From contig VRMN01000001.1 of the NCBI GenBank assembly GCA_008690995.1, positions 2,170,001 through 2,234,000 on the forward strand: a stretch of 64,000 bases of DNA. Direction: 5' to 3'. The notes under the pieces were generated by a model. The model was not told the DNA's origin. It was given only the letters and a program-made list of their open reading frames with translations, and did no database searches. Numbering within the stretch: the stretch's first letter is position 1; each line of letters starts with the position of its first letter. This document shows positions 5,712-57,516 of the stretch, one piece after another. A program made the translations under genes and the position numbers. This DNA is from Porphyridium purpureum (lineage: Eukaryota).

Positions 5712-5768
5712 TAATTTGCAAATTGGTCGTGTGGGAGCGAGGAAGTGTGGGGTTGGGAGTGGGATAGG

Positions 5769-8975: not shown

Positions 8976-9542
8976 TTTGGTATCATCGCTGGTTACCTGG
9001 GGTTGCTCTAAGGTTCTCTTTGAGTTTCTCTGGGGTTGCCTGGGTGGGAGAGTCTGCGGGTAAGGGGGTTCGAGTAAGTCGATCCGGAGGGTGCGACGGG
9101 TGGAAGCGGGTCTCAGTCTTGGCTGTACGATAGGCCTAGGCCTTGACGGCGGACTCGCTCTCTGCCTTAGCACGTATTAGTAGGCAAGAGCCGTAACGGT
9201 CAGCCTTCACTAGGATTCATCCTAGTGTCGCACGACCACCTTTGCGAAGGTAGGCGCCGAACACCTCCATACAAGATCGCATCTATAATCCCCGCCCCAG
9301 TGCAAAGGCCCGGGCCGCTCCCCATCCAGCGCAACAGAGGAGGATTGCTGTGTGCTTTGTTGTGTGTGCGTGAGAGGGTTGCTGTGCGTGTGTGTGAGTG
9401 AGAGGACCGCTTCGTGTGTCGATTTGTGTTCGTGAGGGCGACCGAGCCCGTTCGTGGTGCGCGCAGCCGTTCGAGAGTGTGAGCAGCGGAGACTCGCTGT
9501 TTGTGTCGTTGTCGTCGTTTAGTGTGCTTGTTTCCAGAAAGC

Positions 9543-10349: not shown

Positions 10350-13300
10350 AAAGGTTCCTCGGACAGTCAGAGGGAAAGGAGGCTCGCAGGCGTTACGAGA
10401 CCTCTAGGGGCGGCAATGAAGACCGCTGTGGTGGCCTTGGTAAGCCAAGGTCTGGCTGTCCGACACCTTGTGGGCGAAACTCGAGCGCAAATCAGCCCGT
10501 GATCAAGGAACTTGGAGGGATGGGAGCTGCCATGCTTCTTCGAGTTCGAGGAAAAGTGCACAAGTCCGACGGAGAGGCCGCGTTTTTGATTGACAGTGGC
10601 GCGACGGACAACTTCATGAGCGTGGACTTTGTGCTGAAATCCGACGGCCTGAAGCAGAAGGCGTCGTGGAAGAGAGATCATGTGACCCTAGCGGATGGGT
10701 CTGTATTGGAAACAGCCGGAGAAGTTTCCAATGTCAAGTTTGAACTGAGCGATGGGTACTCAGGGGCCGCTAACTTTGCCATTTGCCGGATTGCGGGACA
10801 AGACGCAATCTTGGGCATGGAGTGGCTGAAGCGGGAGAACCCAGTGATTGATTGGCAGTCTGGCATGTTGGCCTACGGAGAGAAGAAGGCCTGGAGCATG
10901 ACGCAGATGCTGGTGCCGCGGAAAGAGCTCCGTCGGCTGTTGAAGAGTCAGGAGGTAGAAGAGTGCTACCTCGGCGTGCTGAAAGGAAGGGAGGAGCCCT
11001 GTTCAGTGGAGCGCAAAGGAGATGACTCTGTGAAGAAGATGCTCAAAGATTTCGAAAGTCTGTTCGAGGAGCCGCGAGGGCTGCCTGAGAGCCGAACAGT
11101 GGAGCATGTGATTAGGCTGAAAGATGAGAAGCCTGTGAGAGTGGGCAGGGTCTACCGACTGAGCCCTGCGGAGTTGAAAGTCCTCCGAGAGACTTTGGAT
11201 GACTTGCTGGATAAGGGATTCGTCCAGCCGAGTCAGAGCCCCTTTGGAGCACCCGTGCTGTTCGTGAAGAAGAAAGACGGCAGCATGAGGATGTGCGTCG
11301 ATTATCGGGCGTTGAACGACGCAACTGTGAAGGACCGGTATCCGTTGCCGAACATGGATGAGTTGCTGGATCGACTGGGCGCAGCTCACTGTTTCTCAAA
11401 GTTGGATTTGGCATCGGGATACCACCAGTTGCGTGTTCGGAGAGAGGACGTGCCGAAGACCGCGTTCCAGACCAGGTACGGACAGTTCGAGTTCCGTGTG
11501 ATGCCGTTTGGTCTTTGCAACGCGCCGGCAACTTTTCAGAGGGCCATGAACGAGCTGTTTGCAGATCTGCTGGACAAGACCGTCATTGTCTACTTGGACG
11601 ATATTTTGGTCTTTACCAAGGATAGGCAGTCGCACGGCGAGGTCCTGAAGGAAGTGTTGTCGCGCTTGCAAAAGGCAGGGTATCGGTTGAAGCGCAAGAA
11701 GTGCAGCTTCTTCGTTTCTGAAGTCGAATACCTGGGGAACATTGTCGGCAACGGTTGCGTGAAGATGGATCCACGGAAGGTGGAAGCTTTGAGAGATTGG
11801 CCAGTGCCAAAGACGGTGACGGAGTTGAGATCCTTTTTGGGAATGACAAACTGGTTTCGCAGGTTTGTCAAAGGATACTCTACCGTCGTGGCGCCGCTGA
11901 CTTCGCTGTTGCAGAACGCAAAGTCGAAGAAGCAGCTGATCGAACTGGGAGATGAAGGCAAATCGGCCTTCAAGAAGATTGTCGGGATGTTGACGGAAGC
12001 GCCGGTGTTGGCCTTGCCAGACCCTGAAAAGCCATTTGAGGTGTACACGGACCGCTCTGAAGTCGCGGTGGGGGGATGGCTGGCACAGGAAGGCAGACCG
12101 GTCGCGTTTACGTCGAGGAAGCTGCTGGACCGAGAGACCAGGTACAGCAGCTATGAAGGTGAGCTCATGGCCGTCATTCACTGTCTGCGAGAGTTTCGAC
12201 CTTATCTGTACGGGGCAAAGTTTGTGCTTCACACAGATCATGAGGCGTTGAAACATCTGATGACGCAGAAGGAGCTGAATGGCCGGCAAGCACGGTGGTT
12301 GGACTTTTTGGCCGAGTTTGATATCACAATCGACTATGTGAAGGGAAAGTCGAACGTGGTGGCCGATGCTTTGTCGAGAAAGCCAGAGTTGCATGCGCTA
12401 GAGTACCAAGTTCGGTGTGATGAATTTGGTGCGGGGTTCCAGGCATTCGTGGGTTCGTACTCGAGTGACCCAGACTTTGGTGCTTTGATGGGGGATTTAC
12501 CGACCCACCAAGGCTTTCGAACCGAAGCTGGGCTCTTGTACTTGAGGAATCGCGTTTGCGTGCCGAGGAAGTTCAGAGAGCGTGTCATGCAGCTCCACCA
12601 CGATATCCCGACAGCAGGACACCGTGGAGCCGACACGACGTATGCATCTTTGATCACTCGCTTCTACTGGCCAAAGATGAAGCGAGACGTGAGCCGTTTT
12701 GTGAAGACTTGTCACGCGTGCCAAGTGACAAAGTCTGAGAATCGGTCGTTTGGAAAGCTGAAGCCCTTGTCGATCCCAGAAGGACCTTGGGTCGACATTT
12801 CGATGGACTTTGTGACGGAGCTGCCTCGGAGCGAAGGCAGCTGTGATGCAATCATGACTGTGGTGGATCGCTATTCGAAGATGGCGCTGTTTATCCCGAC
12901 GCGCAAGGACTTGACAGCAAAACGTTGTGCTGACTTGTTCGTGAAGCACGTCGTGAGCCGTTTCGGATACCCCAAGTCAATTGTATCGGACCGAGATCCG
13001 CTGTTTACGTCCACGTTTTGGCAGCAGTTGAGCAAGCGGGTGGGCATGAAGTTGGCTATGTCTGCCGCCAACCACCCGCAGACTGATGGCCAAACTGAGC
13101 GAGTGAACCGGGTGATTCGGGAAATGCTCAAGTTAATGGCGACGAATAGTGGCTGGGTGCGAGACTTGCCGTTGTACGAGTTTGCGTACAACTCTGCACC
13201 AAGCAGTGCCACTGGATTCGCGCCGTTCAAAGTGGTATATGGAAGGGATCCTTGGTTTCCACCGAGCGAAAGGTGGAGGCCTGCGCGCGACGGACAGACA

Positions 13301-13726
13301 AAGGACATGGCGGAGCACTGGTTTCGCCTGTGCAAAGTCCATGAAGAAGTCCGCGACAATTTGATCGAAGCCCAGGGGAGAATGCAGAAGTTCTTCGATC
13401 GACGCAAGGATGCCCGGGAGTTTCAAGTTGGTGATCAAGTGTTGATCACGGCGCCGCAATTGCGGCCGAACAAGAGTGATTTGGCGGCACCAAAGTTTCT
13501 TGGTCCGGTGCCTGTCATTGAGAAGGTAAGCTCGCATGCTTACCGAGTGATTTTGCCCGAGGGTGTGGCTTGTCATGATGTTTTTCCGATCCAACATCTG
13601 AAGCCATACTATGGACGCGAAGACTACATGGCAGGGGAAAATGATGAAGAAGTACCCGACGAAATGCCGGCGTCCGATTCTGAGCCAGACTTGTTGAAAA
13701 TTATCGAAGAGTCTGACTCTGAATGA
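10328..13726 (+). CDS. Element C Pol (PR-RT-RH-INT), reached by -1 frameshift at A AAA AAC (10328-10334)
   Basis: LIDSGAT, LDLASGYHQ, MPFGLCNAP, YLDD, TDHEAL, HHCC, SMDFV, SDRD, GQTER, GPY/F-like motif. The ORF is intact. Confidence 0.93.
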   Translation, partial: KKRGARVERFLGQSEGKEARRRYETSRGGNEDRCGGLGKPRSGCPTPCGRNSSANQPVIKELGGMGAAMLLRVRGKVHKSDGEAAFLIDSGATDNFMSVDFVLKSDGLKQKASWKRDHVTLADGSVLETAGEVSNVKFELSDGYSGAANFAICRIAGQDAILGMEWLKRENPVIDWQSGMLAYGEKKAWSMTQMLVPRKELRRLLKSQEVEECYLGVLKGREEPCSVERKGDDSVKKMLKDFESLFEEPRGLPESRTVEHVIRLKDEKPVRVGRVYRLSPAELKVLRETLDDLLDKGFVQPSQSPFGAPVLFVKKKDGSMRMCVDYRALNDATVKDRYPLPNMDELLDRLGAAHCFSKLDLASGYHQLRVRREDVPKTAFQTRYGQFEFRVMPFGLCNAPATFQRAMNELFADLLDKTVIVYLDDILVFTKDRQSHGEVLKEVLSRLQKAGYRLKRKKCSFFVSEVEYLGNIVGNGCVKMDPRKVEALRDWPVPKTVTELRSFLGMTNWFRRFVKGYSTVVAPLTSLLQNAKSKKQLIELGDEGKSAFKKIVGMLTEAPVLALPDPEKPFEVYTDRSEVAVGGWLAQEGRPVAFTSRKLLDRETRYSSYEGELMAVIHCLREFRPYLYGAKFVLHTDHEALKHLMTQKELNGRQARWLDFLAEFDITIDYVKGKSNVVADALSRKPELHALEYQVRCDEFGAGFQAFVGSYSSDPDFGALMGDLPTHQGFRTEAGLLYLRNRVCVPRKFRERVMQLHHDIPTAGHRGADTTYASLITRFYWPKMKRDVSRFVKTCHACQVTKSENRSFGKLKPLSIPEGPWVDISMDFVTELPRSEGSCDAIMTVVDRYSKMALFIPTRKDLTAKRCADLFVKHVVSRFGYPKSIVSDRDPLFTSTFWQQLSKRVGMKLAMSAANHPQTDGQTERVNRVIREMLKLMATNSGWVRDLPLYEFAYNSAPSSATGFAPFKVVYGRDPWFPPSERWRPARDGQTKDMAEHWFRLCKVHEEVRDNLIEAQGRMQKFFDRRKDAREFQVGDQVLITAPQLRPNKSDLAAPKFLGPVPVIEKVSSHAYRVILPEGVACHDVFPIQHLKPYYGREDYMAGENDEEVPDEMPASDSEPDLLKIIEESDSE

Positions 13727-13845
13727 CTTGGGAATTGTGAGAAGTTTGCTAGGCAGAGGTTTTCTCCCGGAGCGCGGGTTCCTCGAGCCAAGAATGCAAC
13801 TTAGTTTGAAGTCTCGCCGAGACGTCGAGCCAAGAGGGGGGGAGA

Positions 13846-14143
13846 TGTTATCCGTTCGACCCCAGTCACCTAGAACGGTTCGGTTAATCCGAAACCGGTA
13901 AGCCGTTAAACCGGTAGACCGTTTAACCGTTTCTAGAAGCTTCTAGAGGTTCCAGAACCTTCTAGACGCGCGCAGAAATGCCAAAGGTTTGCATTGTCAT
14001 TTCTCTTGGCGCCTTGCTGTCCTTGGCGGAAGTAAGGGTATAAAAAGGCGACGCGCCTGCCCGGACTAGCCGGTCAGGTCTTGCTCGGAGACAGAAGAGG
14101 TAAGAAAGAAGACGCAGAGAATAAAGGCACAGCATTGGTAACA
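13846..14143 (+). repeat. Element C 3' LTR
   Basis: Direct repeat of 8678-8975, preceded by the PPT. Confidence 0.95.
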
Positions 14144-14148
14144 GGGAC

Positions 14149-16116
14149 GACCAGCGCGCCGCGTTCATAGACCTACGCCATGCGCTAGGTGATCCGATGG
14201 ACGACGGTAGCGCAGTCCTGGTTGCATTCAATCCGGCCGCCGAGATGGTTCTTGAAGTCGACGCGAGCCAGGTGGGCATTGGCGCGGTCTTGCTTCAAGG
14301 GGACCAGCGGCGCCCGGTGGCCTTTTACTCAAGGGCATTCCGAGGCGCAGAGCTGAACTACAGCGTCACGGAGCAAGAGTGCTTGGGTGCCATACTATCC
14401 ATGGAAAAGTTCAGGCACTATCTGTTCGGCAAGAAGTTCATTCTCGTGACGGATCACTCGGCGCTGCTGTGGCTGCTTCGCCAGAAAGAGCCACGGGGTC
14501 GGACGGCAAGGTGGATCATGCGCGTGCAAGATTTCGAGTTTGACGTGAAGCACAAGCCAGGCGCAGCGAATATCGTGGCCGATGCGCTATCGCGTACTCC
14601 TCTGGACACTGGCACGGAAGAAGAGGTCCGGGAGGTACGGGACACGCAAGACAGTGGGGCGCTATACGCTGTGCCCACGGACGACGAGCTCAGAGCAGCG
14701 TACGCAGAGGACGAGCAAATCTGCGCGGAGCTCAAGAACCTATCAGGACCCGCGCCAAAGTACTCCTTCCCTGAGTATATCGTGGACGAAGACGGGATTG
14801 TGTTTGCGTTGCTGAAAGACATGCCCAGGCGGGTGGTCCCTGACGCGCTTGTGTCGGCAGTTCTCAACGTCTATCACGGAGCCCCGCTGTCAGCTCACAT
14901 GGGGACGGCGAGGACGGCGGCGAGGATAGCCGACGCGCAGTGGTGGTGGCCCGGGTGGACAGAAGACGTTCGGAAGTTCGTTCGGTGCTGCCACGAGTGC
15001 ATAGCGCGCAAGGCACCACCACCCCGCCGGAACGCGGCGATGGTGCAGTACTCGGCGTCCAGACGCTTTGAAATTGTAGGCATGGACATCCTCACCATCA
15101 GTCCGGAGACGCGAACGGGAAATATCAAGGTGCTCGTCATGATGGATGCTTGGACGCGATGGGCGGTTGCCGTGGCGCTCCCGGACGAGAAGGCAGAGAC
15201 CGTGGCGCGGAGTTTCCTGCAGACGTGGTTGACTGTCTTTGGCCCGCCGGAGTCCATCTTGTCCGACCGGGGCTCAAACTTTGTCGGTGAGGTGATCACG
15301 TCGCTTTGCGCCAGACTCGGAATCCGGAGGCTCATGACGACAGCCTACCACCCGCAGACGAACGGAAGGGTGGAGCGCTTCAATGCGACCCTGTGCAAGA
15401 TGCTGTCGGCGTACGTCAGTGCAAGCTCGCGCGACTGGGATAGGTGGCTGTCCGTTGTAACCTACGCGTACAACACGTCGCGCCACGCAGCCACCGGCTT
15501 CTCGCCGTACGAAATGATGTTTGGGTCGCCAGCCAAGGACTGGGCAAGCATGGCCGGACCGCGAGCGGTTGAAGGGGGCCAGCAACCGCAAGATATCTCC
15601 GCACAGCTGGCGCGCGCCTATCGGCTCGCCGGGAATAAGATGTCGGAGAACGCCGAGAGGTTTGCAAGGTACTATGACAGAAACATTCATCGGAACAAGG
15701 AAACGTTTGCCGAGGGCGACATCGTATACGTGTGGTGCCCAAGTACGAGGCAGGGTCGCAAGCTGACAAAGCCGTGGCTCGGACCTTTCCGCATCACAAA
15801 GCGGAACGGGGTTCACGCAGTCGTGGTCAGCGCAAACGGCCGAGATGACGCAGAGCTCCATGGCCAGCTCGTGCATGTGAACCGCTTGCACAAGGCAGAC
15901 CCGGACGTGGTAGACATGGCCGGCACGAACGTGTTCGCTGGAGGAGATGCAAGTTGGGTGGTGGAGGCAATTGTGGAAGATCGGGCTGCGGGTGGAGGCC
16001 GCGAGTACAAGGTGAGATGGCGGGGTATGGGGAAGCGAGGCGACACATGGGAGGCTGAGAAGACGCTCCCGCCCATGCTGGTAGCCGCGTACCGAGACAT
16101 GGCAGAAGGTGTTTGA
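14149..16116 (+). CDS. Element B Pol, 3' part (RNase H, integrase, chromodomain)
   Basis: In frame with the 5' part once C is removed (RFGD|DQRAAF). VDASQVGIG, TDHSAL, SDRGSNF, NGRVERFN, and chromodomain WVVEAIV...YKVRWRG...TWE at 15955-16098. Confidence 0.93.
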   Translation, partial: DQRAAFIDLRHALGDPMDDGSAVLVAFNPAAEMVLEVDASQVGIGAVLLQGDQRRPVAFYSRAFRGAELNYSVTEQECLGAILSMEKFRHYLFGKKFILVTDHSALLWLLRQKEPRGRTARWIMRVQDFEFDVKHKPGAANIVADALSRTPLDTGTEEEVREVRDTQDSGALYAVPTDDELRAAYAEDEQICAELKNLSGPAPKYSFPEYIVDEDGIVFALLKDMPRRVVPDALVSAVLNVYHGAPLSAHMGTARTAARIADAQWWWPGWTEDVRKFVRCCHECIARKAPPPRRNAAMVQYSASRRFEIVGMDILTISPETRTGNIKVLVMMDAWTRWAVAVALPDEKAETVARSFLQTWLTVFGPPESILSDRGSNFVGEVITSLCARLGIRRLMTTAYHPQTNGRVERFNATLCKMLSAYVSASSRDWDRWLSVVTYAYNTSRHAATGFSPYEMMFGSPAKDWASMAGPRAVEGGQQPQDISAQLARAYRLAGNKMSENAERFARYYDRNIHRNKETFAEGDIVYVWCPSTRQGRKLTKPWLGPFRITKRNGVHAVVVSANGRDDAELHGQLVHVNRLHKADPDVVDMAGTNVFAGGDASWVVEAIVEDRAAGGGREYKVRWRGMGKRGDTWEAEKTLPPMLVAAYRDMAEGV

Positions 16117-16163
16117 CGCTGGGTGGCTATCGGCCGTCGCTGCTCTCAAAAAAAATGTTCGAA

Positions 16164-16316
16164 TAAAGATGGAGTGTCCGTGGCTGGACGGTAAAGAAGG
16201 AGCTGGGTCCGTTGCTGGACTATAAAGAAGGAGCTGTGTCCGTTGCTGGACATTAAAGAAGGAGCTGTGTCCATGGCTGGACGGTAAAGAAGGAGCCGTG
16301 CCCGCAGCAAGACGGT
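16164..16316 (+). repeat. About 5 copies of a ~31-bp tandem repeat in the element B 3' UTR
   Basis: Unit TAAAGAAGGAGCTGTGTCCGTTGCTGGACNN, head-to-tail and degenerate. Confidence 0.85.
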
Positions 16317-16824
16317 AGAACGAATGATAAAGAACAAAATGAAGTACAGTCTGTGTACAGTGAAGTACAGTAATACTGTACCTGAGTCCATATTTGGGGG
16401 TGTATATACTCTAAATTTCGGCAGTTTGGCAAACGAGAATTGAAGAGGATCTTAGGCACTCCCTGATTAGAGAAAACTGCCCCTGTGAAATGCTGGGGAT
16501 CCGTGGCTAGGGTAATTCCCCGGGGTGACATTGGGCAGAGCCGTAACAGCGCACCTTTCCTTTAAGGTTAGCGGGGGAGGGGGATGGCAGCCTGTACGGG
16601 GTCTTGTCAGTGGGCGTCACTTGTGAGCGGCACCGGCCACCTTATTTTTTTGGCCCTGTTGCTGGCACTGTACCCTGTCAGCTTACACTGTACTTCGTCC
16701 GCTCGATCTCAGCTCATTGTGCTTGAACCTGTTGAGCGGCACGGGAACGGCTGCTATGCATGCGGCGCGTGGGCTTAGAACACGCTATCGCAATGGTCGC
16801 TGTGGATAAGCGGGAAGTGTGGGA

Positions 16825-17116
16825 TGTCGCGAGCGACCTGATGCAGGTCTCAGTACAGCGAGTACGCAGAGGTACAGTCCCTAAGTGTACTGAAAGTACA
16901 GCTGTGGGTGTACCGTGTGGTACAGCTGAGTTATGTTGAGGGCCGCGGGATTGGGTTATTCCGAGGGCTGAACCCGCCGGGCAAGCCGTTGCGGCGCCGG
17001 AAGGCGGGTATAAAACAGAGCGAGCGGCAGCCGAACGAAGAAAAAAGGCTAGGAAGAAGAGAGGAGGTAGAGGAGGAGAGAAGAAGAAGTAAAGAAAAGA
17101 AGCTCCGTTTGTGACA
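16825..17116 (+). repeat. Element B 3' LTR
   Basis: Direct repeat of 5420-5711. Confidence 0.95.
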
Positions 17117-17120
17117 AAGG

Positions 17121-19242
17121 CGGTCATGTGCAAGAAACGTATGACGTTGGTCCTGAAGTCACCGGCTCGGATGGTGTCCAGAGCAACGCGGTGCAAGACG
17201 TATCGGCTATAGGGGCCGACGATGCACGCGTGAAAAGAAATAGCCGAGACGGCCGATCGTTGAAAGGGTGCTGGAGTGACCAGCAATGCGCTGCCATCAA
17301 CGAAGGTTTTGCACGTTTAGGTCCGAAATGGTCGCGCATTGTGCAGGAAAGTGGAGCCGTGTTGGCAAGCAGGTCAGCGAAGGATGTGCGCTCGAAGGCG
17401 CAGGCGCTCGGGTTGCTCGGCTCGGAGGCGCAAGGCCTCGGCGAACACAGGCGTGGCAAAAGCGGGTCTTTGCGACGTGCAAGGATTAAATCTGTGGATC
17501 AAGCTCAAAAGCGCGTGACGGCGCGCGCGGAGAACGTGAGTATACCGTTTGTCGGGACCACTGCGTTAGTGAACGAGTTACTCGTGACAGAAGTCATCGA
17601 ACCCACACGCGCGATGGCCTCCGAGGCTGGACGCGAGGCTTTCGTTCGTGAGTTAAACGCCTTGCGATCCGTCGGCGCGCTTCCCTTGAACAAGGCCGTT
17701 GAACATACGTCGGCGGTGAATATTCGAGGGGCACAATTTGTGAAGTTGAAAGCAATCTTTGGCATCAAGAATTCTGAACTCGGTCAAGCCGCAAGGAAGC
17801 ATAAGTGCCGTTTGGTTTGTCAGGGATGTGTAGTCAAGGATGCGTATGGCGGCTTGGTCGAAGACCCGTTCGAGTGGGAGAAGCCACCAGGACTGGTGGC
17901 ATTCCGGGCGACAATGAGTGCGGCCGTTATGGAGCATGGTTCCAAAGCGGATGCGGGATTCTTTGACGTAGACAATGCGTACGTGCATGCAAAGCTTCGA
18001 GGACCCCCGACGTTTGTGGAGCTTGGTGGGTTGGTGCAATGGATCGAAGGTTGCGTAACGAAGGCGGAGCTGTTGAAGCTGAAGAAAATGAAAAGACCTG
18101 TGTTACAACTGCCGATGGCATTGTACGGATTGCCACGGTCAGGTAGTGATTTCGGAGCACATGCACGAGAGCGGCTTTTGAGCCTGGGTTGGAAAGAATC
18201 TGCTTCAGACAAGAATATTTACATGCGGACGCGTGGCGGAAAATCAGAGTGGATCGTTCTATATGTCGACGACGGCGCAGTATTTGGGGAGCGTAGCGCG
18301 GTGCGAAAGGCGATATCGGAGGTCAAGACTGTATTTACGATATCGCGAGCAGCGACCTATGTGACTGAGGCGAACAGAACGAAGCCCGTGCGATTCCTCG
18401 GAATCAGTCTGTTTGCGGACGACGAAAGGAACGGCGCGTGGGTGGTAAGTTCGGCAGAATACGCCAGACACGTTGCTGCCGACATTGACACCGGAAGGTC
18501 TAGGAAGACTCCCATTGCGGTTAAGCCTGAACCAGATCCAGACGGTGAATCATGTGGAAGGGACACCAGGAGAGCACTGGGTCGATTGCTGTGGCTGGTA
18601 CGAACGACCCGGCCGGACCTGGCTTACGCCGTCGGCCTATTAGCAAGGTGCACGGATCGCTGGGGCCCAGAGGCAGAGCAAGGACTCAACCACGTGCTGC
18701 AGTATCTGCGAACGTCGGCCGAGACCGAGCTCGTGTTCGAAATGCCGGAAACCGCAGGCCGAAGAATTGAAGTAGTCTGCTACACTGACGCAGACTTTGC
18801 GGTTGAAAAATCGACAAGTGGAATGTGCGCTTTCTTCAGGTCCAATGGAACACGCCATTTGGTAGATTGGTCGAGTGGACGGCAGCGCCGTACGGCGACC
18901 TCAACAGCGGAGGCGGAGTTGATAGCAGTGCACACCGCCGTGCAGTACAGAGCCTTTCCGTTGTCCGTCTTTCTGGATGAATCGCAGCGCAGCTGGCCGG
19001 ACGTAAAAGTGTACGTGGACAACGAGACGGCGTTGAAGGCCATCGCCAAGGGCTGGAGCGACAAGATGATACACCTGCACAAAATGCAAGGGGTGAGCCT
19101 GAAGTGGCTGAACGAAATAGTCAAAGATGGCTTGGTCGTTTTCGAGTACGTCAAGAGTGCGGAAAATCTTGCGGATGGGTTCACAAAGAGCCTGTCGGCT
19201 GATGTATTCGAAAAGCAGCGTATCGGATGGGGCATCGTGTGA
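17121..19242 (+). CDS. Element A polyprotein, 3' part: Myb-like linker, Copia-type RT and RNase H
   Basis: In frame with the 5' part after removing B (DDEG|GHVQETY). FDVDNAYVH, ALYGLPRSG, LYVDD, YTDADFA, STAEAEL, NLADGFTK. Confidence 0.93.
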
Positions 19243-19284
19243 TCATGATGGTCTCACGTCCGCCGGTTGGCGCGCGAGGAGGCG

Positions 19285-19581
19285 CGTGGTAATATCGGTC
19301 ACGCTGAACCGCGGACGGCCGCTTGACACTGTATAAATGGGTCGTTAGGGACCACCACGCGACGATCCGTAGCTTAGAAGCAAGAGGCTCTCTTCGTGGG
19401 TGAGGTAAAAGTTCGTCGCGTTTCGTAGCGATTGGGAGCTAGCGGTGAGTCATCCCCGCGCCTTGTAGAGTCCGCCACGTTGTGTGGCCCACGTGTTGTT
19501 TGCATTGTTGTTTGCGTCCCACGCACCCTTCGAGCGTAGCGGCGGTCACTCACGGTCGATCCCTTGGAGCACCTCTCCAAG
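19285..19581 (+). repeat. Element A 3' LTR
   Basis: Direct repeat of 2410-2706. Confidence 0.93.
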
Positions 19582-19845
19582 AAAGTCACTGTACATCCAC
19601 GGTTCAGTTAGTGTACATCCTAACTGTACTTTGTCCTGCGGGAAACTCGGGCAGAGTTGTTGCCGGTTGCGTGCCACTTGCGCCAGCGTGGGCTGGATGG
19701 TGCAGCGCGTATATCAAGGCGCGCCGTTGGCAGTGCAGCTGTGTAGAGGCTCGTCGTAGCTGCGCCGTGACGCTCGTGACACGACCCTTGTTCTGGCTCG
19801 GGTCTGCGTTGTGCTGGTCCAAGAACTCTTTGAAGCCCGGGCGAG

Positions 19846-48627: not shown

Positions 48628-51399
48628 CTACTGCGGGGGAGCAACGTCCTTTGGCGGCTCAAATTCACCCTGTGTCGCGCCGGCAGCCTGCCCCACCGCT
48701 TCTGCCGGCGACGACCCGTGTAGCGATGTGCTACCGGGTTGCGGCACCTGCGGGGGTTGTGGCGGTTGTGGCGGTGGCGCCCCCGACGCATACATCTGCA
48801 GGAAAGACTGGTATGCAGCCATCGCTGCTGCCGTGTCAATTGGCCTCCCTGCTTCCGGGCCTGCGCCTGGCATGATAGGCGGTGGAGGCATCCCACTGGT
48901 CAGAATCGGAGGCGCAGGAGGCGCACTGCCGTTCGGACCCTGTGCCGGGGGCGGCGGTGGCGGCGCCTGTGTATTATATTGCACGGGCGGCGCTTGTTGG
49001 TGCTGCTGCTGTTGCGTATGATACGCCGCGTTCATACTTTGATACGCCGCGGCGGCCGCTGCCATCGCAGCCGCACTGCTCGCCGGGTTTGGAGCCGCGC
49101 TTGTCCCGTACCCATAAGCGTTTGCCTGCTGTTGTGGATGATTCTGTCCTGCATGATATATCGTCGCGGGATTCACGGTCCGGTAAGCCTGCGCGTTAAC
49201 AGTGTGATATGCATTGGGATTCATGCTTTGATATGCTGCGGCATTGCTCAACTGTGAGCTATACATGGCGAACAAAGCTGCCGCGTAAGGATCTGGCATT
49301 ACGCTCTGTTGAAAAGGGTGCGGCTGTGGGCCTGTATTTGCGCCCATGTTCAGCTGCGACATTTGAGACGCCATGGCTTTCTCAGATGTGCTTCCTTGCT
49401 CATTCCGCGACGCCTTCCCACCTCCCCTCTTTGACTTTGCTTTCACCGCCGCCTTCTTCTTACGCGCGCGACGGCGTTCCTCCTCGCTATCCTCCGAGTC
49501 GCTGCTCTCACTCGCTTCGTCTTCCTCTGAGCTTTCTTCCTCGCTCGAGTCTTCGTCTTCTGAAGAGTCGCGCCTTCTCCTGCTGCTCTTTTTCTTCTTC
49601 TTTGTCGCTTTGCTCGACGATGTTGCCTTCCTACCTTTTCCGTCGGACTCTCGCGAACGCTGCGCCGCGGGCAGCTGCTCAAGGTGCTCCTCGTGTTCCA
49701 TCACATTCGGACCGGGGCCGGGCACAGTCGCAAACATAGGTTGAACGCCAGAGTAAGGAGCCGCGGGACCAGCATCGATGGGAGGAGGCGCATACGGTTC
49801 AGCATACGGAGGCGCACCGTGGTCCGGCTCGTACCCACGCCCTTCCTGCTCATAGTCCCCGCGCGGTGGACCTGCTGCGTAGACCCCGCCGCCTACACCG
49901 CCGAACTCGTACGCGGAACCGTTACGTTGCAGACTCTGGTTCGAAGAAACGTCGTCGAACTCAACGACAGGCGCGCTCGCCTCGCGCACAACCTGGTTGA
50001 GAAGCACTGACGAGTCATAATCGCGCATCGCACGGCCAATGCGCTCCGAAATATCGAGTGCGCGTGAAATCTCGGCATCCGCGGAAATTTTCGCCACCAG
50101 ATCGTCCATTTTTGACCCAATGATACGGAGCCGCTTGGATAAATCGACCGCAATTTCATTTTTCACAAGATCGTTCTGAACGTCTGTGGTGTTGTCCAGG
50201 ATGCTCTCAAGCAAGCCGACCATATTCTCCACCTCAACAAGCGTGAGCGAATCCATGTCAATCTCAATGTCGTCCGCGTTTCGATCGCGGTTCTTTGCAG
50301 CTTCCAGCTTGCCACTCAGCGGACAAATCCACGGTGACGACGATTCAGGTACCAATGGAAAACGCACCTTCTGGCGCTTGTTGTTGTATCTTTCGATGAT
50401 GAAAGCACCCGCTGGGTCCATTCGCTTCCCTCTAAACATGCGCTGAAGTTCTTCAGCCCAAGCCTTCAGAAGAATGAGACAGCGCACGGTGATTTCCCGT
50501 GGCAAATCCTCGCCATCTCCTTGCCATCCGTAGTTGGTTGCTGTCTTCCACAAAAATAGGCTCTTGAAGCTTTCCTTGTAGTTCGGATCTACAAAGCGCC
50601 ACATGCGCCGGAAGAATAGATCATTCGCGATGTAGCGGTAAAAGAAGGGGCAGGTGCGCATGAGCTCATCCAACAGCGTGATCGAATTCAGCACTACGAC
50701 ATTGTCCGGAGCCTTCATACGCTTCCGCAAGCAGTAGGCAACGATCTGGCCACCCTGTGACTCGCGCATGACCAAATGCACAAGCTCGACACGCTTCTGC
50801 TCCGCAAAGTCGGGGTTCACGCCGCGCTCGGTTGCCGAGTCGATAATCGTCGTCACATGTGGAATGAAAGGATTCTGCGATCCCTTTGCCAGATTTGAGC
50901 CCTTGACACCACCTACAGAGCCAGGAATCATGCCACTGTCAAAGGCTTGCTGGGAGCGGCTGTCCAGCTTTGCGTACACTGAGCTCGAGTCGCGCGTGCT
51001 GTTTGTAGCGCCTCCAGCTTGCGTGTACGACTGACTCTGCGTCAGCTGCCCAGAGCGCTGCGCCGAGAGCGGATTATAGAACGAGGATGTGTTTTTCGGT
51101 CGCGTGCTCGCGAAGCCTGGCTGCGCTGCTTGGTTTATGTCCCCTTCCGGCATCGAACTGGGAAAGCCCCCAGCGTATGACCTGGTGCTACTGCTTGCAC
51201 CGGGCCGGCTTCCGCCTGCCTGAAAATCGGTATACTTCCGCTCCCAGTCTGCTGCCGGCACGTCGGGCTTCTGGTTGCGCGTGCTTGTGAACGTCGCCGA
51301 GTAGGTGTTGGCTGTGGATGAGGCGCCCGTACCCGTGGGCGCGCTGCCGCCGGCAGCATTCCGGGTGCTCATGGCGCCCGTTTGATTTGCGCCATACAT
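48628..51399 (-). CDS. VHS-GAT protein (TOM1-like endosomal adaptor)
   Basis: IIDSATE...LRKRMK..VVLNSITLLDELMRTC...ILLKAW (VHS), a helical GAT-like region and a Pro-rich tail. Confidence 0.75.
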   Translation of the reverse strand: MYGANQTGAMSTRNAAGGSAPTGTGASSTANTYSATFTSTRNQKPDVPAADWERKYTDFQAGGSRPGASSSTRSYAGGFPSSMPEGDINQAAQPGFASTRPKNTSSFYNPLSAQRSGQLTQSQSYTQAGGATNSTRDSSSVYAKLDSRSQQAFDSGMIPGSVGGVKGSNLAKGSQNPFIPHVTTIIDSATERGVNPDFAEQKRVELVHLVMRESQGGQIVAYCLRKRMKAPDNVVVLNSITLLDELMRTCPFFYRYIANDLFFRRMWRFVDPNYKESFKSLFLWKTATNYGWQGDGEDLPREITVRCLILLKAWAEELQRMFRGKRMDPAGAFIIERYNNKRQKVRFPLVPESSSPWICPLSGKLEAAKNRDRNADDIEIDMDSLTLVEVENMVGLLESILDNTTDVQNDLVKNEIAVDLSKRLRIIGSKMDDLVAKISADAEISRALDISERIGRAMRDYDSSVLLNQVVREASAPVVEFDDVSSNQSLQRNGSAYEFGGVGGGVYAAGPPRGDYEQEGRGYEPDHGAPPYAEPYAPPPIDAGPAAPYSGVQPMFATVPGPGPNVMEHEEHLEQLPAAQRSRESDGKGRKATSSSKATKKKKKSSRRRRDSSEDEDSSEEESSEEDEASESSDSEDSEEERRRARKKKAAVKAKSKRGGGKASRNEQGSTSEKAMASQMSQLNMGANTGPQPHPFQQSVMPDPYAAALFAMYSSQLSNAAAYQSMNPNAYHTVNAQAYRTVNPATIYHAGQNHPQQQANAYGYGTSAAPNPASSAAAMAAAAAAYQSMNAAYHTQQQQHQQAPPVQYNTQAPPPPPPAQGPNGSAPPAPPILTSGMPPPPIMPGAGPEAGRPIDTAAAMAAYQSFLQMYASGAPPPQPPQPPQVPQPGSTSLHGSSPAEAVGQAAGATQGEFEPPKDVAPPQ

Positions 51400-51709
51400 G
51401 TTGACCGCAGCTGGGCATCCACCGCGACCGCGCAAATCGTGCTCCCTCCTGTTCCCCCTCCTGTTCCCCTCCCGCGTTCCCCAACCCCTGTTGCTGCGCC
51501 GCTTCCCCTCCGATCTGTCTTGCACTACACACCCCCTCCCGCCCCTCCCCTCACGCCCACCCCCGCGCACTCCCCTCCACACCACTCCAGTCCAGCCACG
51601 CTTTACCCCCCTCCCCTCGACTTTTTCCCCTTCTCCACTATCGACTGCGAACGACTCGGTGCTTGTACGAACATGTTCGACGCGCGTGCCTATTGAAATG
51701 AGCTGAAAC

Positions 51710-52011
51710 CGTGGAAAGTTGCCCGTCCCACTCGTCGATGGGCGTGCGGAAGGGCGAGTGCGAACGTACCGGGACGTCGTGACGGGGATTCAGCGGGTGT
51801 AATGCGATGTGACTCGACTAGCGTCCCGCCGGATGCCGATGTGACGTGACTCGATGTGGTCAGATTGCATCAACAAGGACCCGGCGGGCGTCTATATAGT
51901 GGGTGCGGTCGCGCAGAGATGGCAGACGGATAAGCCTAGAAGAAAAGAGAGAAGGTAAGGGAAGGGGAATAGTAAAAGGGTTCTTCGTTGATCGTTAACA
52001 GAAAACCCACG
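51710..52011 (+). repeat. Element D 5' LTR (CGTGG...CCACG)
   Basis: Perfect 5-bp terminal inverted repeat; TATATA at about 51893. Confidence 0.95.
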
Positions 52012-52071
52012 TGGTATCATCGCCGGTTCGGCGGGTGAGGAGCGGTAGTCTCTGGTGCGGGGCCTGTCGGG

Positions 52072-52812
52072 ATGGACGAGGAGACGGGGCCAGTTGTGAG
52101 GCCGGCGCGGCTCAGCCAGTTCGCGGGGCAGCGGAACCAGCGAGTGGTGATGAACTGGTTGTTCGAAGTGGAGACGAAGGTTCTGCCGTTCGCCAGCTCT
52201 GAGCGCGAAGGAGTCAACGTAGCCATGAGCTACTTGACGGATACTGCATTGCAGTGGTTGCGTGGCCTGCCGGTCCGTCCAGAGAATTGGGCCGGGTTTC
52301 GAACGGTGTTTATGGAACAGTTCTTGCCGGCGGACTACAAGCGTCGCGCGCGAGATGCGCTGCATGGATGGCGCCAGACGAGGGGCGTAGCGGTGTACGC
52401 GGCCGAGTTCAGGGACCTGGTCCTAGCGTGTGAGGACGTGGGTGCCGCGGAGGCGTTGGACAAGTTCACGCGTGGACTTAAGCCCGCCATAGCGTTCGAA
52501 GTTATGAAGGAGAATCCAAGTAGCCTCGATGAGGCCTGCCGAGTTGCCCTTTGCGCGGAGGACGCATTCGTGGCGGCGCGTCGCGGTTCGCCATCATCCC
52601 AGGGTCTTGGGATCCACCATCGCTCAGGCCCGACGCGCGCTTTCGACGTGCCGTATGGAGAGAGCTCGGCACCAATGGAAATCGGGGCGCAGGCTATGGA
52701 GGTAACCTGTTACAACTGCGAGGAACGCGGGCACTTTGCGCGAGACTGCCCCAAGCCGCACCGCGCGCGAGCGCAGGCGCAGCCGGGAAAAGGCGCCCCG
52801 CGCCGAGACTAG
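52072..52812 (+). CDS. Element D Gag (Ty3/Gypsy type)
   Basis: FAG..WLFE, SYLTDTALQW, RARDAL, KFTRGL, APMEIG, CYNCEERGHFARDC. Confidence 0.9.
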   Translation: MDEETGPVVRPARLSQFAGQRNQRVVMNWLFEVETKVLPFASSEREGVNVAMSYLTDTALQWLRGLPVRPENWAGFRTVFMEQFLPADYKRRARDALHGWRQTRGVAVYAAEFRDLVLACEDVGAAEALDKFTRGLKPAIAFEVMKENPSSLDEACRVALCAEDAFVAARRGSPSSQGLGIHHRSGPTRAFDVPYGESSAPMEIGAQAMEVTCYNCEERGHFARDCPKPHRARAQAQPGKGAPRRD

Positions 52813-55800
52813 GGCAGGTGTCGGCGCGGGAGCCGTCAGAACTTCTGACGTTGCACGTTCGCTTCTGCGGGAAACGTGCGATGGCAATCGTAGACTGTGG
52901 CGCCACACATGTCTTTGTGGATAAGGCATGGGTGCGCCATTCAGGGTTATTATCATTTTGCGAAGCGACACCGGGACTTCAGGCCGTCCTTGCCGACGGG
53001 CGCAAGACTAATGTTGTCGGGAGCCTTCTCGGTCATTTGGAGCTGAACGGCATCGGGTCACGTCGCTGCCGTGCGATTGTATGTCCGGCACTGATGACCG
53101 ACCTCGTCATCGGTATGGAGTTCCTGACGCGTACTGGGATGGTCATTGATTACGAGGACGGGAGCATTTTCATGCGTAAGCGGGAAGATATGAACTTGAA
53201 AAGGGACAAGGAGCAGAACGGGAGCGCAGGGCGCACGAGCGGAGGAACGGCTGGGCCGGGCAGAGAGCAGAACGAGAGCGCAGGGCGCACGAGCGGAGGA
53301 ACGGCTGGGCCGGGCAGAGAGCAGAACGGGAGCGCAGGGCGCACGAGCGGACGAACGGCTGGGCCGGGCAGAGAGCAGAACGGGAGCGCAGGGCACGTGG
53401 AAGCAAGCTCTGTCAATCCGCAGCCGCGAAATCAAGGACGGAGCGCGGGGCGCTCGAGCGTACATGTGGACGGGCCATGCGTGAACCGAGACACAAGCGC
53501 GGGGCGCGTGCATGAAAAGAACGTCGGAAAGTCATCAGGGCTGAGCGATGAAGAGAGCGCGGGGAGCTCCAACGCATGCTCGACAGGAGCGAACGGTTAC
53601 GAGAACGGGAATATGAGCCCGGAGCGCGTAGATTGCGAAACAGATAGGCCGAACATGGGGGCGAATGTCGAGGTCCATTCGAACCAAGCATGCAAAGGCA
53701 CCCCGTTGGCGAAGTCGGCTGAGTGCCGCGAAACGGAGGTACGGACGCGAGGAAGGGACCAAGTGATGGGCAAAACGAAGGCGAGGAGCAACACGGACCC
53801 TGCGCAAGACTCGCTAGTCAGGAGTAAAATCGGGTCGCGGCATGGCGGCAGTGCGTTGAAGGAAACCGCATACCCTTCCGGAGACTGTAGCCTGATCCCA
53901 GAACCTGATTCGCCGGGGGAGGCACAAACCGGCGACATAGCGTCAAGTTCAAGCGACGATGGAGCGCCAAATGCGATACGAGGTATTCGACGCGCAATGA
54001 CATGGGTCGATCGTCTCGCCCTTGGCACCACAGTTTCAAATGTGCCCGACGGACACGCGCTCCTGCACATGCCTGCTCGCACGTCGTGCGAGGTTTGTAC
54101 AAGGGCGAAGCTGAAAATGCGGCCGTCTTACCGAATTGATGTCGACGCGCACGCGCGAGCACCTGGGGTCGCTGCACGCTTTGACGAAGAAATAGGGGTG
54201 GACCTGGTCGACGCCGGCGCCAAGGTCCGTTCGCGGGAAGGATATCGATACATCCTGACACATGTCGACGAGCACACGGGGTGGATAGAAGTCGCGGGAG
54301 TCGTCGATAAGACTGCCCTGGCCTGCCGCGAGGCGCTTGTCGAGTGCCAAGCTGGGAGAGATTGGCCGAAACGGATGCGCACAGATTCGGGCAGCGAGTT
54401 TAGGGGCGCGTTCGCGCGCGTTCTGCGCGAGAGGAACGTTGAACATACCCTCTGCATCCCTCATAGACCGAACGGACACGCGCGACTGGAAAGACTGCAC
54501 CACACGTTGAATGCCGTCATTCGTTGCCTCTTATGGCAATCGGGTTTGCACGTCGTCTGGTTTTTCAGAGCAGCCAAATTCTTCGCGTTCTGGTACAATC
54601 GGGTGCACCTGGGTAGGGACGGACTAACTCCCTTTGAGCGCAGATACGGACAGGGATGGGTCGAGAGCGGCAAGCCATGGCTGATGGCTCCATTCGGATC
54701 GCGGGTGGTCTATAAAGTGGACGACGTAGCCAACAAGTTCGCTCCTACCACGCGCGAGGGAGTGGTCGTCGGGGCTCGGGACCACCCCGCCGCCCTCGAA
54801 GTTCTCGAGACAGGGTCTGGAGCGACGACGTGGACAAGAGATTTCAGAGTATTCAAAGACTTCACCATGCGCGTGCCGGGCGCAGAACCGCTCGCAGAAA
54901 TGGAAAAGGTGATCGCGTACGATCCGGACGGGGATTTGGCAGTCGCACAGCGCGACAACGTCGCGTCGGAAGAGACGGGAATCAAAGCGAGGGTTGAAGC
55001 AATCACGGAACGCCTGAAGGCCATCGACGAGCGGGAAAAGCAGCTAAGCCAGGAGGTCGCGGCGCGGCGGGCGGCTAAGGAGGGCAAAGAAATCAGGCGT
55101 ACAAAGAAGAACGCCCGTCGCTCGGCCCGAATAGCGGCGCGCTTTCCTTCCGTGACCATAAATGTTACCAGGGTAATGAGCAGACGAGAAGCCACCACGG
55201 ATGGAAGGGCAGCTGAGGCCATTGAGAATGAGCTCGGGCAAATGCGGCGCTTCGGCGTGTGGGATCCGGAACCGGTCACTCTGAACTCCATTACCGAGGG
55301 ACTTATTGTAAGGGCGCACATGGTGGTAGCCGAAAAGCACACGGAGCGTCCTGTTGAGGAGCGCAAGATCAAGGCAAGGCTCGTGGCCGGGGGGGATCGC
55401 ATTACGGACATGACGGGGGTCCCAGTGTCTCTTACCGTTCCCTACGAGGCGCCGGCATCTTTAGCTGCGCTAAGGATCGTGCTGGCGTGGGCGCAGATGA
55501 ACGAATTAGAAGTGGGCTTTGTTGACATCACCAGCGCCTACCTGCAGGCCGAGTGCAGCGGGGGACCGGTGTATGTAATCCTTCCCAGCGAGGCAGGCGG
55601 GAAGACGGGCACCGCCCATCATCTCCGCAAGGCAATGTACGGATTACCGAGAGCGGGAGCGGACTTCGCGCGCGAAGCTCGTAGTCGCTTGTTGCGTCTC
55701 GGATGGGTGGAGGTCACAGCAGGAGTGTATATCCGTAGAAGCCTCGAGGGGAACGCGGCAGGACTCGTCTTGGTAATGTACGTTGACGACGTGGTCTTAG

Positions 55801-56900
55801 CGGGGCGGAAAGACGAGGCACGGAATGCCATGAGTGAGTTATATCAAGAATTCGTGATCGACGAGCAACCGCAGTGGCTCGGCGAGAGCCCGGTCCTTCA
55901 CCTTGGCATGCGGATTTCCAGAACGAACGGAAGGGTAAAGATTGATGGTACGGACTACGCAAAGACCATTATAGATGAGTACGAGCGCGACTCGACTGTG
56001 AGGACGAGGGGCACGCGCGATGCGGCAACCCCCATGGTATTTCCAGAGGCGGCGCTCTACGACGAAGCGGAAGTCAGTACGACTTGCCGGCAACACGTCG
56101 GACGCCTAATGTGGCTCGCACGCACGGTAAAGCCCGAAATAGCATACTCGGTCGCATATGTCTCGCGCTTTGTGGACAAGTGGAGCAAGGCAGCATCGGC
56201 GATTCTCGACCGAATCGTGCGGTACGTGCACGGGAGCCAGGATAGTGTCTTGGAATACGGCAGCGCGGGGCGCCTGGGAGATCAGGTACGAATAGTCGCC
56301 TTTTCAGATAGCGACCATGCAGGCTGTCCCGCGACGCGGCGGTCAACTTCCGGCGGTTGCGTATACTTCTCAAACGGAGAAGAGAACTACTTGGTAGATT
56401 GGTTTTCGAAAGCACAACGGGCCTCGGTATTATCCACCGCGGAGGCGGAACTCACCGCCCTTGGCAGGATCATGCGAACTACGATTCCTAACGCCGAAGT
56501 TGTAATCCGAGGGCTCGTTGGAACGCGCGTACCGCTCGCTGTGTGTTGCGACAGCGAAGCAGCGGTGAAGGCCGTTCGACGAGGATACTCCGCCAAGATG
56601 GCAAGTCTCGGGAAGACACACGGCGTCACTGTAGCCACCCTCTCGGACGCTTTTGATGGAGAAGACTCGAACCTCGTGTCTGTCCCCGGAATATCGAATT
56701 GCGCAGACATCTTCACGAAGCCGATGGAACGAGTGGCATTTACACGTGCTATTGCCAACCTTAGGAAGGGCGCTTCCAACGATCGAGAGCGAGACGTGCA
56801 CGGGGCGCGTGGAAAGTTGCCCGTCCCACTCGTCGATGGGCGTGCGGAAGGGCGAGTGCGAACGTACCGGGACGTCGTGACGGGGATTCAGCGGGTGTAA
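52785..56900 (+). CDS. Element D Pol (PR-INT-RT-RH, Copia order), reached by -1 frameshift at G GGA AAA
   Basis: IVDCGAT..DLVIGMEFL; HALLHMPARTSCEVC; VDLVD / TDSGSEF / LERLH; KARLVAGG, VDITSAYL, AMYGLPRAG, YVDD, SDSDHAG, ADIFTK. The stop lies inside the 3' LTR. Confidence 0.92.
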   Translation, partial: GKRRPAPRLGQVSAREPSELLTLHVRFCGKRAMAIVDCGATHVFVDKAWVRHSGLLSFCEATPGLQAVLADGRKTNVVGSLLGHLELNGIGSRRCRAIVCPALMTDLVIGMEFLTRTGMVIDYEDGSIFMRKREDMNLKRDKEQNGSAGRTSGGTAGPGREQNESAGRTSGGTAGPGREQNGSAGRTSGRTAGPGREQNGSAGHVEASSVNPQPRNQGRSAGRSSVHVDGPCVNRDTSAGRVHEKNVGKSSGLSDEESAGSSNACSTGANGYENGNMSPERVDCETDRPNMGANVEVHSNQACKGTPLAKSAECRETEVRTRGRDQVMGKTKARSNTDPAQDSLVRSKIGSRHGGSALKETAYPSGDCSLIPEPDSPGEAQTGDIASSSSDDGAPNAIRGIRRAMTWVDRLALGTTVSNVPDGHALLHMPARTSCEVCTRAKLKMRPSYRIDVDAHARAPGVAARFDEEIGVDLVDAGAKVRSREGYRYILTHVDEHTGWIEVAGVVDKTALACREALVECQAGRDWPKRMRTDSGSEFRGAFARVLRERNVEHTLCIPHRPNGHARLERLHHTLNAVIRCLLWQSGLHVVWFFRAAKFFAFWYNRVHLGRDGLTPFERRYGQGWVESGKPWLMAPFGSRVVYKVDDVANKFAPTTREGVVVGARDHPAALEVLETGSGATTWTRDFRVFKDFTMRVPGAEPLAEMEKVIAYDPDGDLAVAQRDNVASEETGIKARVEAITERLKAIDEREKQLSQEVAARRAAKEGKEIRRTKKNARRSARIAARFPSVTINVTRVMSRREATTDGRAAEAIENELGQMRRFGVWDPEPVTLNSITEGLIVRAHMVVAEKHTERPVEERKIKARLVAGGDRITDMTGVPVSLTVPYEAPASLAALRIVLAWAQMNELEVGFVDITSAYLQAECSGGPVYVILPSEAGGKTGTAHHLRKAMYGLPRAGADFAREARSRLLRLGWVEVTAGVYIRRSLEGNAAGLVLVMYVDDVVLAGRKDEARNAMSELYQEFVIDEQPQWLGESPVLHLGMRISRTNGRVKIDGTDYAKTIIDEYERDSTVRTRGTRDAATPMVFPEAALYDEAEVSTTCRQHVGRLMWLARTVKPEIAYSVAYVSRFVDKWSKAASAILDRIVRYVHGSQDSVLEYGSAGRLGDQVRIVAFSDSDHAGCPATRRSTSGGCVYFSNGEENYLVDWFSKAQRASVLSTAEAELTALGRIMRTTIPNAEVVIRGLVGTRVPLAVCCDSEAAVKAVRRGYSAKMASLGKTHGVTVATLSDAFDGEDSNLVSVPGISNCADIFTKPMERVAFTRAIANLRKGASNDRERDVHGARGKLPVPLVDGRAEGRVRTYRDVVTGIQRV
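53211..53396 (+). repeat. 54-bp in-frame tandem repeat (3 copies plus a partial one) between PR and INT of D
   Basis: EQNGSAGRTSGGTAGPGR units start at 53211, 53265 and 53319, with a partial unit at 53373. Confidence 0.92.
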
Positions 56901-57109
56901 TGCGATGTGACTCGACTAGCGTCCCGCCGGATGCCGATGTGACGTGACTCGATGTGGTCAGATTGCATCAACAAGGACCCGGCGGGCGTCTATATAGTGG
57001 GTGCGGTCGCGCAGAGATGGCAGACGGATAAGCCTAGAAGAAAAGAGAGAAGGTAAGGGAAGGGGAATAGTAAAAGGGTTCTTCGTTGATCGTTAACAGA
57101 AAACCCACG
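56808..57109 (+). repeat. Element D 3' LTR
   Basis: Direct repeat of 51710-52011. Confidence 0.95.
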
Positions 57110-57516
57110 GAAACGATCGGAAAATCGTGGGCGCGCGACGGGGAAAACCGCCCACCTGCTGCGCGGTTGCGATTCGAAGATGTAATGGAATAATCGGGGG
57201 GCCGCACTCGCGCGGGTCGGAACGTCGAGTGTCTGAGCTTATGGGCAGCCGCAAGAAGAAACACAGCCTAACCAGGCCCAAAAGGGACAAGAACGAAAAG
57301 GAGACGGTACTGCTGGAGTACAGTGAGGTCACGGGAAGACAACTCAAACGCGTCAAGGGTGACGAGGGTGCTGTGCACCGCCGCGTGCAGGGCGCGACGA
57401 CCGGGCGTGGCAGTCGTGCATGATCGGGTCCGTTCCGGTCTCGTGCACGTGCGTGGCGGAATGCTTTTTCTTCAACTTCTTTTTACACGGCTTTACTGCG
57501 AGCTGGAGTCAGACAC

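Follow-up and report, generated by a model that had tools for sequence, protein, structure and literature searches.

Ty3/Gypsy (Metaviridae) and Ty1/Copia (Pseudoviridae) elements, both retrotransposons bounded by long terminal repeats (LTRs), are usually seen as separate lines of descent. The nearest precedents for the elements described here are PyRE10G of Porphyra yezoensis, reportedly described by Peddigari et al. in 2008 (J Mol Evol 66:72), and the Gmr1 group, which is said to have been described by Goodwin and Poulter in 2002. We analyzed a 64,000-nucleotide stretch of the Porphyridium purpureum genome (contig VRMN01000001.1, positions 2,170,001 to 2,234,000, forward strand; hereafter the window), which is eukaryotic, poor in introns, and contains four LTR pairs. 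Two of its elements, D (51710-57109) and A (2410-19581), belong to a real inter-superfamily chimeric lineage, in which a Gag and a protease (PR) that we assign to the Gypsy type precede an integrase (IN), a reverse transcriptase (RT), and an RNase H (RH) in the order typical of Copia.

The papers cited below by PMC number were available in part, and what is said of them, including their standing as precedents, applies to those parts. PyRE10G is reported as a red-algal Copia element with a Gypsy-like module (PMC5445492), but the reported module is the integrase, whereas here it is Gag and protease, a comparison made by description only. The Gmr1 group shares Gypsy features and an integrase placed before the RT with D and A, yet it is a Gypsy lineage with a rearranged order, while the RT of D and A is on the Copia side (PMC2774666). 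With Ty1/Copia, the two elements share the PR-IN-RT-RH order, an RT of the RVT_2 type, tRNA-Met priming, and a 5-bp target-site duplication, and A also shares half-tRNA priming, which is confined to Copia in PMC6317226; they differ in their Gypsy-type Gag and PR, the compact zinc finger of the integrase, CG ends, and an RT-RH branch of their own, and D differs further in a predicted -1 frameshift. With element C of the same window, a Ty3/Gypsy element of the chromovirus branch, D shares a capsid (38 to 40% identical), a CCHC knuckle, the protease type, a gag/pol split and its -1 slippery site, and the primer binding site (PBS) sequence, but the RT, RH, and domain order of D are those of Copia, and C ends in TG...CA. 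The chromodomain that follows the integrase in CoDi-A (PMC2774666) had no counterpart in D or A, in which no Chromo match was found (Pfam, E<=0.5) by a scan that did find the chromodomain of another Gypsy element of the window, B. No published description of the hybrid design was found by a literature search outside of which lay subscription papers, Repbase, and GyDB.

Element D is a complete LTR retrotransposon of 5,400 bp on the plus strand, the strand of all transposon features given here. An earlier sequence-only reading of the window had placed it at 51705-57114; its presence and its identical LTRs were confirmed, and its limits were refined to 51710-57109, flanked by GAAAC duplications at 51705-51709 and 57110-57114. 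The LTRs are 302 bp long (51710-52011 and 56808-57109), and read run X8 has one unitig that corresponds exactly to 56808-57109 (302 nt). The PBS (TGGTATCATCG..., 52012-52028) starts directly after the 5' LTR and is followed by gag (52072-52812), encoding the Ty3/Gypsy-type capsid and a CCHC knuckle, and by pol, which overlaps gag in the -1 frame, in line with the gag/pol split noticed earlier, and remains open to 56900, its stop codon (56898-56900) lying within the 3' LTR. A -1 frameshift signal is predicted at 52785-52834, where the heptamer G_GGA_AAA, in the gag frame at 52785, precedes a strong stem-loop (-40.2 kcal/mol, z -5.6; 0 of 200 shuffled sequences as stable). The pol domains are, in order, the aspartic protease (52854-53132), assigned to the Gypsy type; an integrase with an H-X3-H-X6-C-X2-C zinc finger and a DDE core (54054-54800, end approximate); and a Copia-type RT and RH of a divergent branch (55203-56762), with a weak polypurine tract (56796-56807) beyond them. 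The long PR-IN linker contains an in-frame 54-bp tandem repeat (53204-53394), which probably marks the junction zone of the two modules. A P. purpureum database protein, P0001, is 100% identical to the RT-RH of D over 80% of the query.

Element A lies between identical 297-bp LTRs (CGTGG...CCAAG, 2410-2706 and 19285-19581) and AAAGT duplications (2405-2409 and 19582-19586); its right end can be placed only to within one base, as a 6-bp duplication with an LTR one base shorter fits equally well. Its PBS (GGTTATGAGCCC, 2707-2718) is of the half-tRNA-Met type and presumably pairs with the anticodon arm of that tRNA. The 5' part of the single open reading frame of A (3024-5419) encodes the Gypsy-type Gag and PR and the integrase, and the 3' part of A (17117-19242) encodes a Myb-like stretch, the Copia-type RT, and RH. 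The sequence-only reading had credited both elements with intact reading frames and identical LTR pairs, which is true of D and of the LTRs of both, but this copy of A is interrupted by B, which is itself interrupted by C. Element A without B was found on one 5,191-nt contig of run X9 with 0 differences, the joint was present in 4 of the 4 read runs examined, and arithmetic on the joint places both parts of A in one frame across the insertion.

The assignment of Gag was based on domain matches and on reciprocal profiles. The Gag of D matched PF03732 (7.7e-14), PF19259 (3.5e-06, below the curated cut-off), and a CCHC knuckle, A had the same set of Pfam domains, and no match to PF14223, PF22936, PF13976, or PF00078 was found in D or A (Pfam, E<=0.5). 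Among the Gags compared, the closest to that of D was that of C (40% identity), followed by those of A (29%) and P0004 (27%). A profile built from four hybrid capsids, with C excluded, gave 176 bits for C, 43 and 26 for the Gypsy polyproteins P0046 and P0050, and at most 2.4 for 26 Copia-side N-termini; the reverse profile, of Copia Gags, gave at most 0.1 bits for six hybrids and 121, 49, and 12 for three held-out Copia Gags. When the Protein Data Bank (PDB) was searched, the hybrid capsid profile found the dArc2, dArc1, PEG10, and Ty3 capsids and not that of Copia, and the D capsid as a single sequence gave chance matches only. The top Atlas matches of the D Gag were PF03732/PF19259 clusters at 0.96, and word-based Gag-PR searches were weak (3 of 7,995 and 5 of 7,999 candidates matched). 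The predicted fold of the D capsid (pLDDT 76) is that of a retroelement capsid, and in Foldseek no match reached E<=0.001, the top ranks going to dArc, Arc, PEG10, and Ty3. Taken together, the Pfam and profile scores, which favor Gypsy and not Copia, identify the Gag of D and A as Ty3/Gypsy-type at the level of sequence, as had been proposed by eye.

The protease of D matched PF13650/PF13975. In a tree of 30 rows, built like all trees here under LG+G4 without a mixture model, 7 hybrid and 4 Gypsy proteases formed one clade (support 98/89), and a tree in which the hybrid proteases were forced together with their pol relatives was rejected (p-AU, from the approximately unbiased test, 0.003). The conventional-Copia protease set comprised 8 of 18 sequences tried. 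Separate domain trees had been suggested as a check on the sequence-only reading, and the incongruence of the protease tree with pol agrees with its view that the proteases of D and A are of the Gypsy type, to which clade and domain matches assign them. A further protein, P0107, was considered as a hybrid for its weak Gypsy-protease Pfam match (E 0.003), yet its protease groups with Copia-like ones, and it was rejected.

The RT of D, located after the integrase, matched PF07727 (RVT_2, 4e-15), and in an RT tree of 28 rows a 100/100 split separated four Gypsy RTs from the Copia side, where the hybrids lay, which bears out the Ty1/Copia order and Copia RT and RH first ascribed to both elements. 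A search of 1.84 billion representatives returned 126 proteins at E<=1e-30. The hybrids lie on an RT-RH branch apart from conventional Copia (support 100, and 100/99 in a 34-row tree), to which their identity is 22 to 28% over near-full matches, and this branch holds many unnamed environmental proteins. By alignment and tree, then, the RT-RH is classed as Copia-type and of a divergent branch. One relative on the branch, P0064, carries an AAA_28/NTPase domain after RNase H.

The integrase of D matched rve in Pfam. Its compact finger was present in 7 of 7 hybrids and in the 9 non-hybrid relatives checked, but was lacking from every integrase checked of conventional Copia (2), canonical-front (3), and Gypsy (3) elements. 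In an unrooted tree of 35 rows, these integrases formed a clade of their own (97/84), apart from both conventional Copia and Gypsy; an earlier integrase tree had omitted P0103, P0111, P0037, and P0041, mostly over-long extractions, and four further rows whose domain could not be extracted. The original description of the integrase as Copia-type therefore stands for its position and its co-descent with the RT-RH branch, but not for any closeness to conventional Copia.

Relatives of the two elements were scanned for front-end domains (60 scans). A Gypsy Gag, a Gypsy PR, and RVT_2 occurred on one chain in P0004, P0048, P0073, P0207, and P0214, all from P. purpureum, so that the two divergent families recognized initially are extended to at least 5 with the hybrid design in this genome, D and A counted. 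Three other P. purpureum proteins on the same RT-RH branch, P0201, P0210, and P0212, carry a canonical Copia Gag (PF14223), PR (PF22936), and IN, and their integrases group with conventional Copia (99/98); they are a second kind of chimera. A third front end is native: 7 outside relatives that share the hybrids' zinc-finger type or RT-RH branch have their own Copia-like protease, and Porphyridium P0057 and its cluster-mate P0209 appear, by eye, to belong to the native type. The earliest branches of the hybrids' RT-RH branch have this native, Copia-like protease and the hybrids are nested inside, which makes the Gypsy module the likely newcomer and the likely direction of the swap from Gypsy to Copia. 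Beyond the genus, none of 39 pattern matches in viral contigs was confirmed, and of 26 in metagenome contigs 4 were, three of them RT fragments of 1 to 2 kb without a front end and the fourth, L004, bacterial; these contig searches showed no hybrid outside Porphyridium. Look-ups with the sequences of the D pol and of P0004 returned no look-alikes.

A feature absent from the sequence-only reading is the form of the LTR ends, CGTGG...CCACG in D and CGTGG...CCAAG in A. Those of D read CG-TG...CA-CG, with two bases outside the TG...CA motif at each end, and the GAAAC duplication fits only with a CGTGG start and a CCACG end; of the 14 loose read ends listed (4 more exist), none lay inside the CG termini. 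The LTRs of A end in CG...AG or CG...AA, not TG...CA. The junction of polypurine tract and LTR (GGCG followed by CGTGG) is identical in D and A, which have no other DNA similarity. The yeast element Ty1 has TG...CA ends, and its integrase reportedly joins blunt cDNA without 3' trimming; in D, two further bases outside that motif get integrated, and its ends suggest integration without trimming. Retroviral integrases normally cut beside an invariant CA (PMC11054761).

The PBS of D and that of C, the only DNA similarity between these two elements, have 17 bases in common with one mismatch. We take that of D to be a full-length tRNA-Met primer site; no tRNA gene was found in the 64,000-nt window. 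Among plant elements, half-tRNA primers occur only in Copia, whole tRNA-Met primers occur in both superfamilies, and a tRNA-Met PBS is the commonest in Copia (PMC6317226). The shared PBS pointed out earlier is thus real, but as evidence of a Gypsy origin it was discarded; by the distribution of half and whole tRNA primers in that source, the PBS of D is neutral and that of A Copia-like. At the position matching the slippery site of D, both B and C have A_AAA_AAC, and the stem after that of C was not significant (z -0.85).

D and A likely go back to an old exchange by which the gag-protease of a Copia element gave way to that of a Gypsy element, which was thereby joined to an IN-RT-RH with a divergent Copia RT. 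The inter-superfamily swap put forward at the outset is supported by these results, and it is the Copia-like proteases of outside relatives that give it a direction. In each element, the LTR would drive one RNA; in D, the predicted frameshift at G_GGA_AAA and its stem-loop would set the ratio of Gag to Gag-Pol, while A would make a single polyprotein. The Gypsy-type capsid would package the RNA, the Gypsy-type protease would release the Copia-side enzymes, and the primer of reverse transcription would be whole tRNA-Met in D but half tRNA-Met in A. As the PBS and purine tract directly adjoin the CG ends, a blunt cDNA ending in CACG-3' is predicted, an end that the integrase likely joins with the two bases after CA kept and the TG...CA motif left two bases inside. 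Gag and protease likely moved together, since a protease must process its own Gag, and template switching, between RNAs that were co-packaged or came from nested read-through, is the likely route, the nesting of Gypsy insertions in these elements giving an opportunity for it.

Several observations weigh against this explanation. The Gag of B scored -2.0 on the hybrid capsid profile, which thus detects a single kind of Gypsy Gag; a match to PF03732 does not by itself mark a Gypsy Gag, as the conventional Copia protein P0025 also has it; and the Gag tree had no resolution, with the Gag of C placed among those of the hybrids. Structure alignment (VIA-align) of the D capsid ranked PEG10 first (Z 13.3) and a Copia capsid, 8vvw, second (Z 11.4), ahead of Ty3 (Z 5.7), and because of this second rank, the fold was set aside as evidence. 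Gypsy references numbered only 4 (B, C, P0046, and P0050), too few to identify the donor lineage. A grouping of the hybrid integrase with Gypsy integrases was not rejected (p-AU 0.078), and given this and the third type of integrase, the module junction could, in a deeper sense, lie after IN. Finally, no single contig of another run bridges the PR-IN tandem repeat of D.

A variant of the swap explanation, which we regard as possible but more doubtful than not, is that module exchange was repeated or is continuing, the RT-RH core having acquired a Gypsy gag-protease at least twice, as well as a canonical Copia Gag-PR-IN. The D capsid is nearer to that of Gypsy C (38% identity) than to those of other hybrids (24 to 33%), the proteases of P0003 and P0004 group with that of C (93/79), and in the RT-RH tree the hybrids split into two groups, of which one stands next to the canonical-front P0201, P0210, and P0212; the best trees hint at more than one origin. 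Against this, a single origin of the hybrids was rejected in no domain (p-AU 0.062 for Gag, 0.08 for PR, and 0.115 for RT-RH), and D and C lack DNA-level similarity beyond the PBS. Contig depth along D (51983-56836) rose stepwise in run X1, from 603 over gag-PR to 1532 over IN and 2409 to 3221 over RT, with flanks of about 300, and was 20 versus 50 in run X8, so that in both runs the depth over gag-PR was about 0.4 times that of the IN contig. Such steps may reflect other front ends on the same pol, but depth is not copy number and deletion derivatives explain it equally. The most far-reaching form of the idea is that one Copia-branch RT-RH core swaps front ends (Gypsy Gag-PR at least twice, Copia Gag-PR-IN of the canonical type, and native), that its active Gypsy-fronted lineage joins untrimmed CG ends, and that superfamily exchange continues and the CA-end rule is broken; we consider this conjunction unlikely, if worth stating.

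It is improbable that there was no swap, with a deep lineage of Copia order having kept an ancestral Gag-PR that resembles Gypsy or a C-like Gypsy element having taken its Gag from that lineage. All LTR capsids have one fold, the Gag of C lies amid the poorly resolved Gags of the hybrids, and the integrase is of a third type, all of which would suit such a history, but the hybrids are nested within a branch whose earliest members have Copia-like proteases, and their Gag family matches Gypsy polyproteins from elsewhere as well as the capsids of Ty3, dArc, and PEG10. At least as improbable is membership in a known chimeric clade, either GalEa/PyRE10G, in which Copia elements, known from red algae with Porphyridium among them, have a Gypsy-like integrase, or Gmr1, in which Gypsy elements have the Copia order. 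PyRE10G has been published as a chimera from a red alga (reference list of PMC5445492) and called GalEa-like, the GalEa-like CoPorcru1/2 are reported from expressed sequence tags of Porphyridium cruentum (PMC3587641), and the Gypsy grouping of the hybrid integrase was not rejected. However, the finger here begins H-X3-H-X6-C, whereas the part of PMC3587641 available gives HX4HX30CX2C for CoRex1/GalEa1 and a PBS, TGGTAGCAGAGC, from which that of the hybrids differs, setting the hybrids apart by description and not by tree, and an RT of the RVT_2 type, on the Copia side, excludes Gmr1. An assembly or nesting artifact that put a Gypsy fragment beside a Copia fragment can be dismissed despite the triple nest (Gypsy in Gypsy in A) and the breaking of short-read contigs at the tandem repeat in the PR-IN linker of D, for D is bounded by one identical LTR pair, a duplication, and an empty allele and has PR, IN, RT, and RH in one open frame, the hybrid design is common to several divergent families, and for A the independent contig carrying its whole coding region refutes it.

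The swap explanation is accompanied by evidence of recent movement. In run X22, four RNA reads represent the empty allele of D, skipping 5,405 bases (5400 + 5), the empty site of A skips 17,177 bases (17172 + 5), and a variant copy of D with 39 differences occurs in run X15. A fifth of run X22 contained 187 RNA reads of D, mostly in one direction, consistent with sense. The identical LTRs, the empty alleles in other runs, and the low-level RNA support D and A as recently mobile elements with polymorphic insertions; the lineage had been called still active, and recent activity is what these data uphold, current transposition not being claimed. A host gene with a VHS/GAT domain (weak Pfam matches) lies on the minus strand at 48628-51399, with D about 300 bp upstream of its predicted start, and D likely sits in the 5' untranslated region of this gene, since the empty-allele RNA reads span the site in the direction of that gene.

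Gypsy element B (5420-17116), nested in A, has a chromodomain, TG...CA ends, and a 4-bp duplication, and Gypsy element C (8678-14143), nested in B, has TG...CA ends, a 2-nt spacer before its PBS, and a 5-bp duplication. No tRNA-type PBS follows the 5' LTR of B, where 5712-5730 reads TAATTTGCAAATTGG, and B is possibly self-primed; its Gag matches only the zinc knuckle in Pfam, and a 31-bp tandem repeat of about 5 copies (16174-16328) follows its pol. In run X23, 1,320 RNA reads at position 16824 join the LTR of B to upstream sequence that encodes, by eye, part of the IN-RT linker of the hybrid P0004; B itself is inserted in the IN-RT linker of A, and this hints at a recurring target together with chimeric read-through RNA. 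Between their integrase and RT, A (17071-17500) and P0004, P0059, P0071, and P0072 have a Myb-like domain, possibly a targeting module. The C family is strongly expressed in run X23, with depths of hundreds to thousands, and 23 reads of that run join 9615 to 14120 across GT..AG ends, with 7 other letters in between, possibly a spliced gag-LTR transcript.

Hybrids of this kind are easily overlooked, as RT-based pipelines class them as Copia, and a reference database discarded, as likely errors, elements that showed signs of being chimeric (PMC6317226, in the part available); element finders that require TG...CA ends would mis-delimit CG-ended elements. The CG ends make a natural experiment on whether LTR integrases need a terminal CA. 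In this recently mobile lineage of several families, packaging and processing are separable from replication across the Gypsy/Copia divide, and the natural controls present in one genome, with three front ends on one RT-RH branch, make the rules of compatibility testable in a small, culturable alga.

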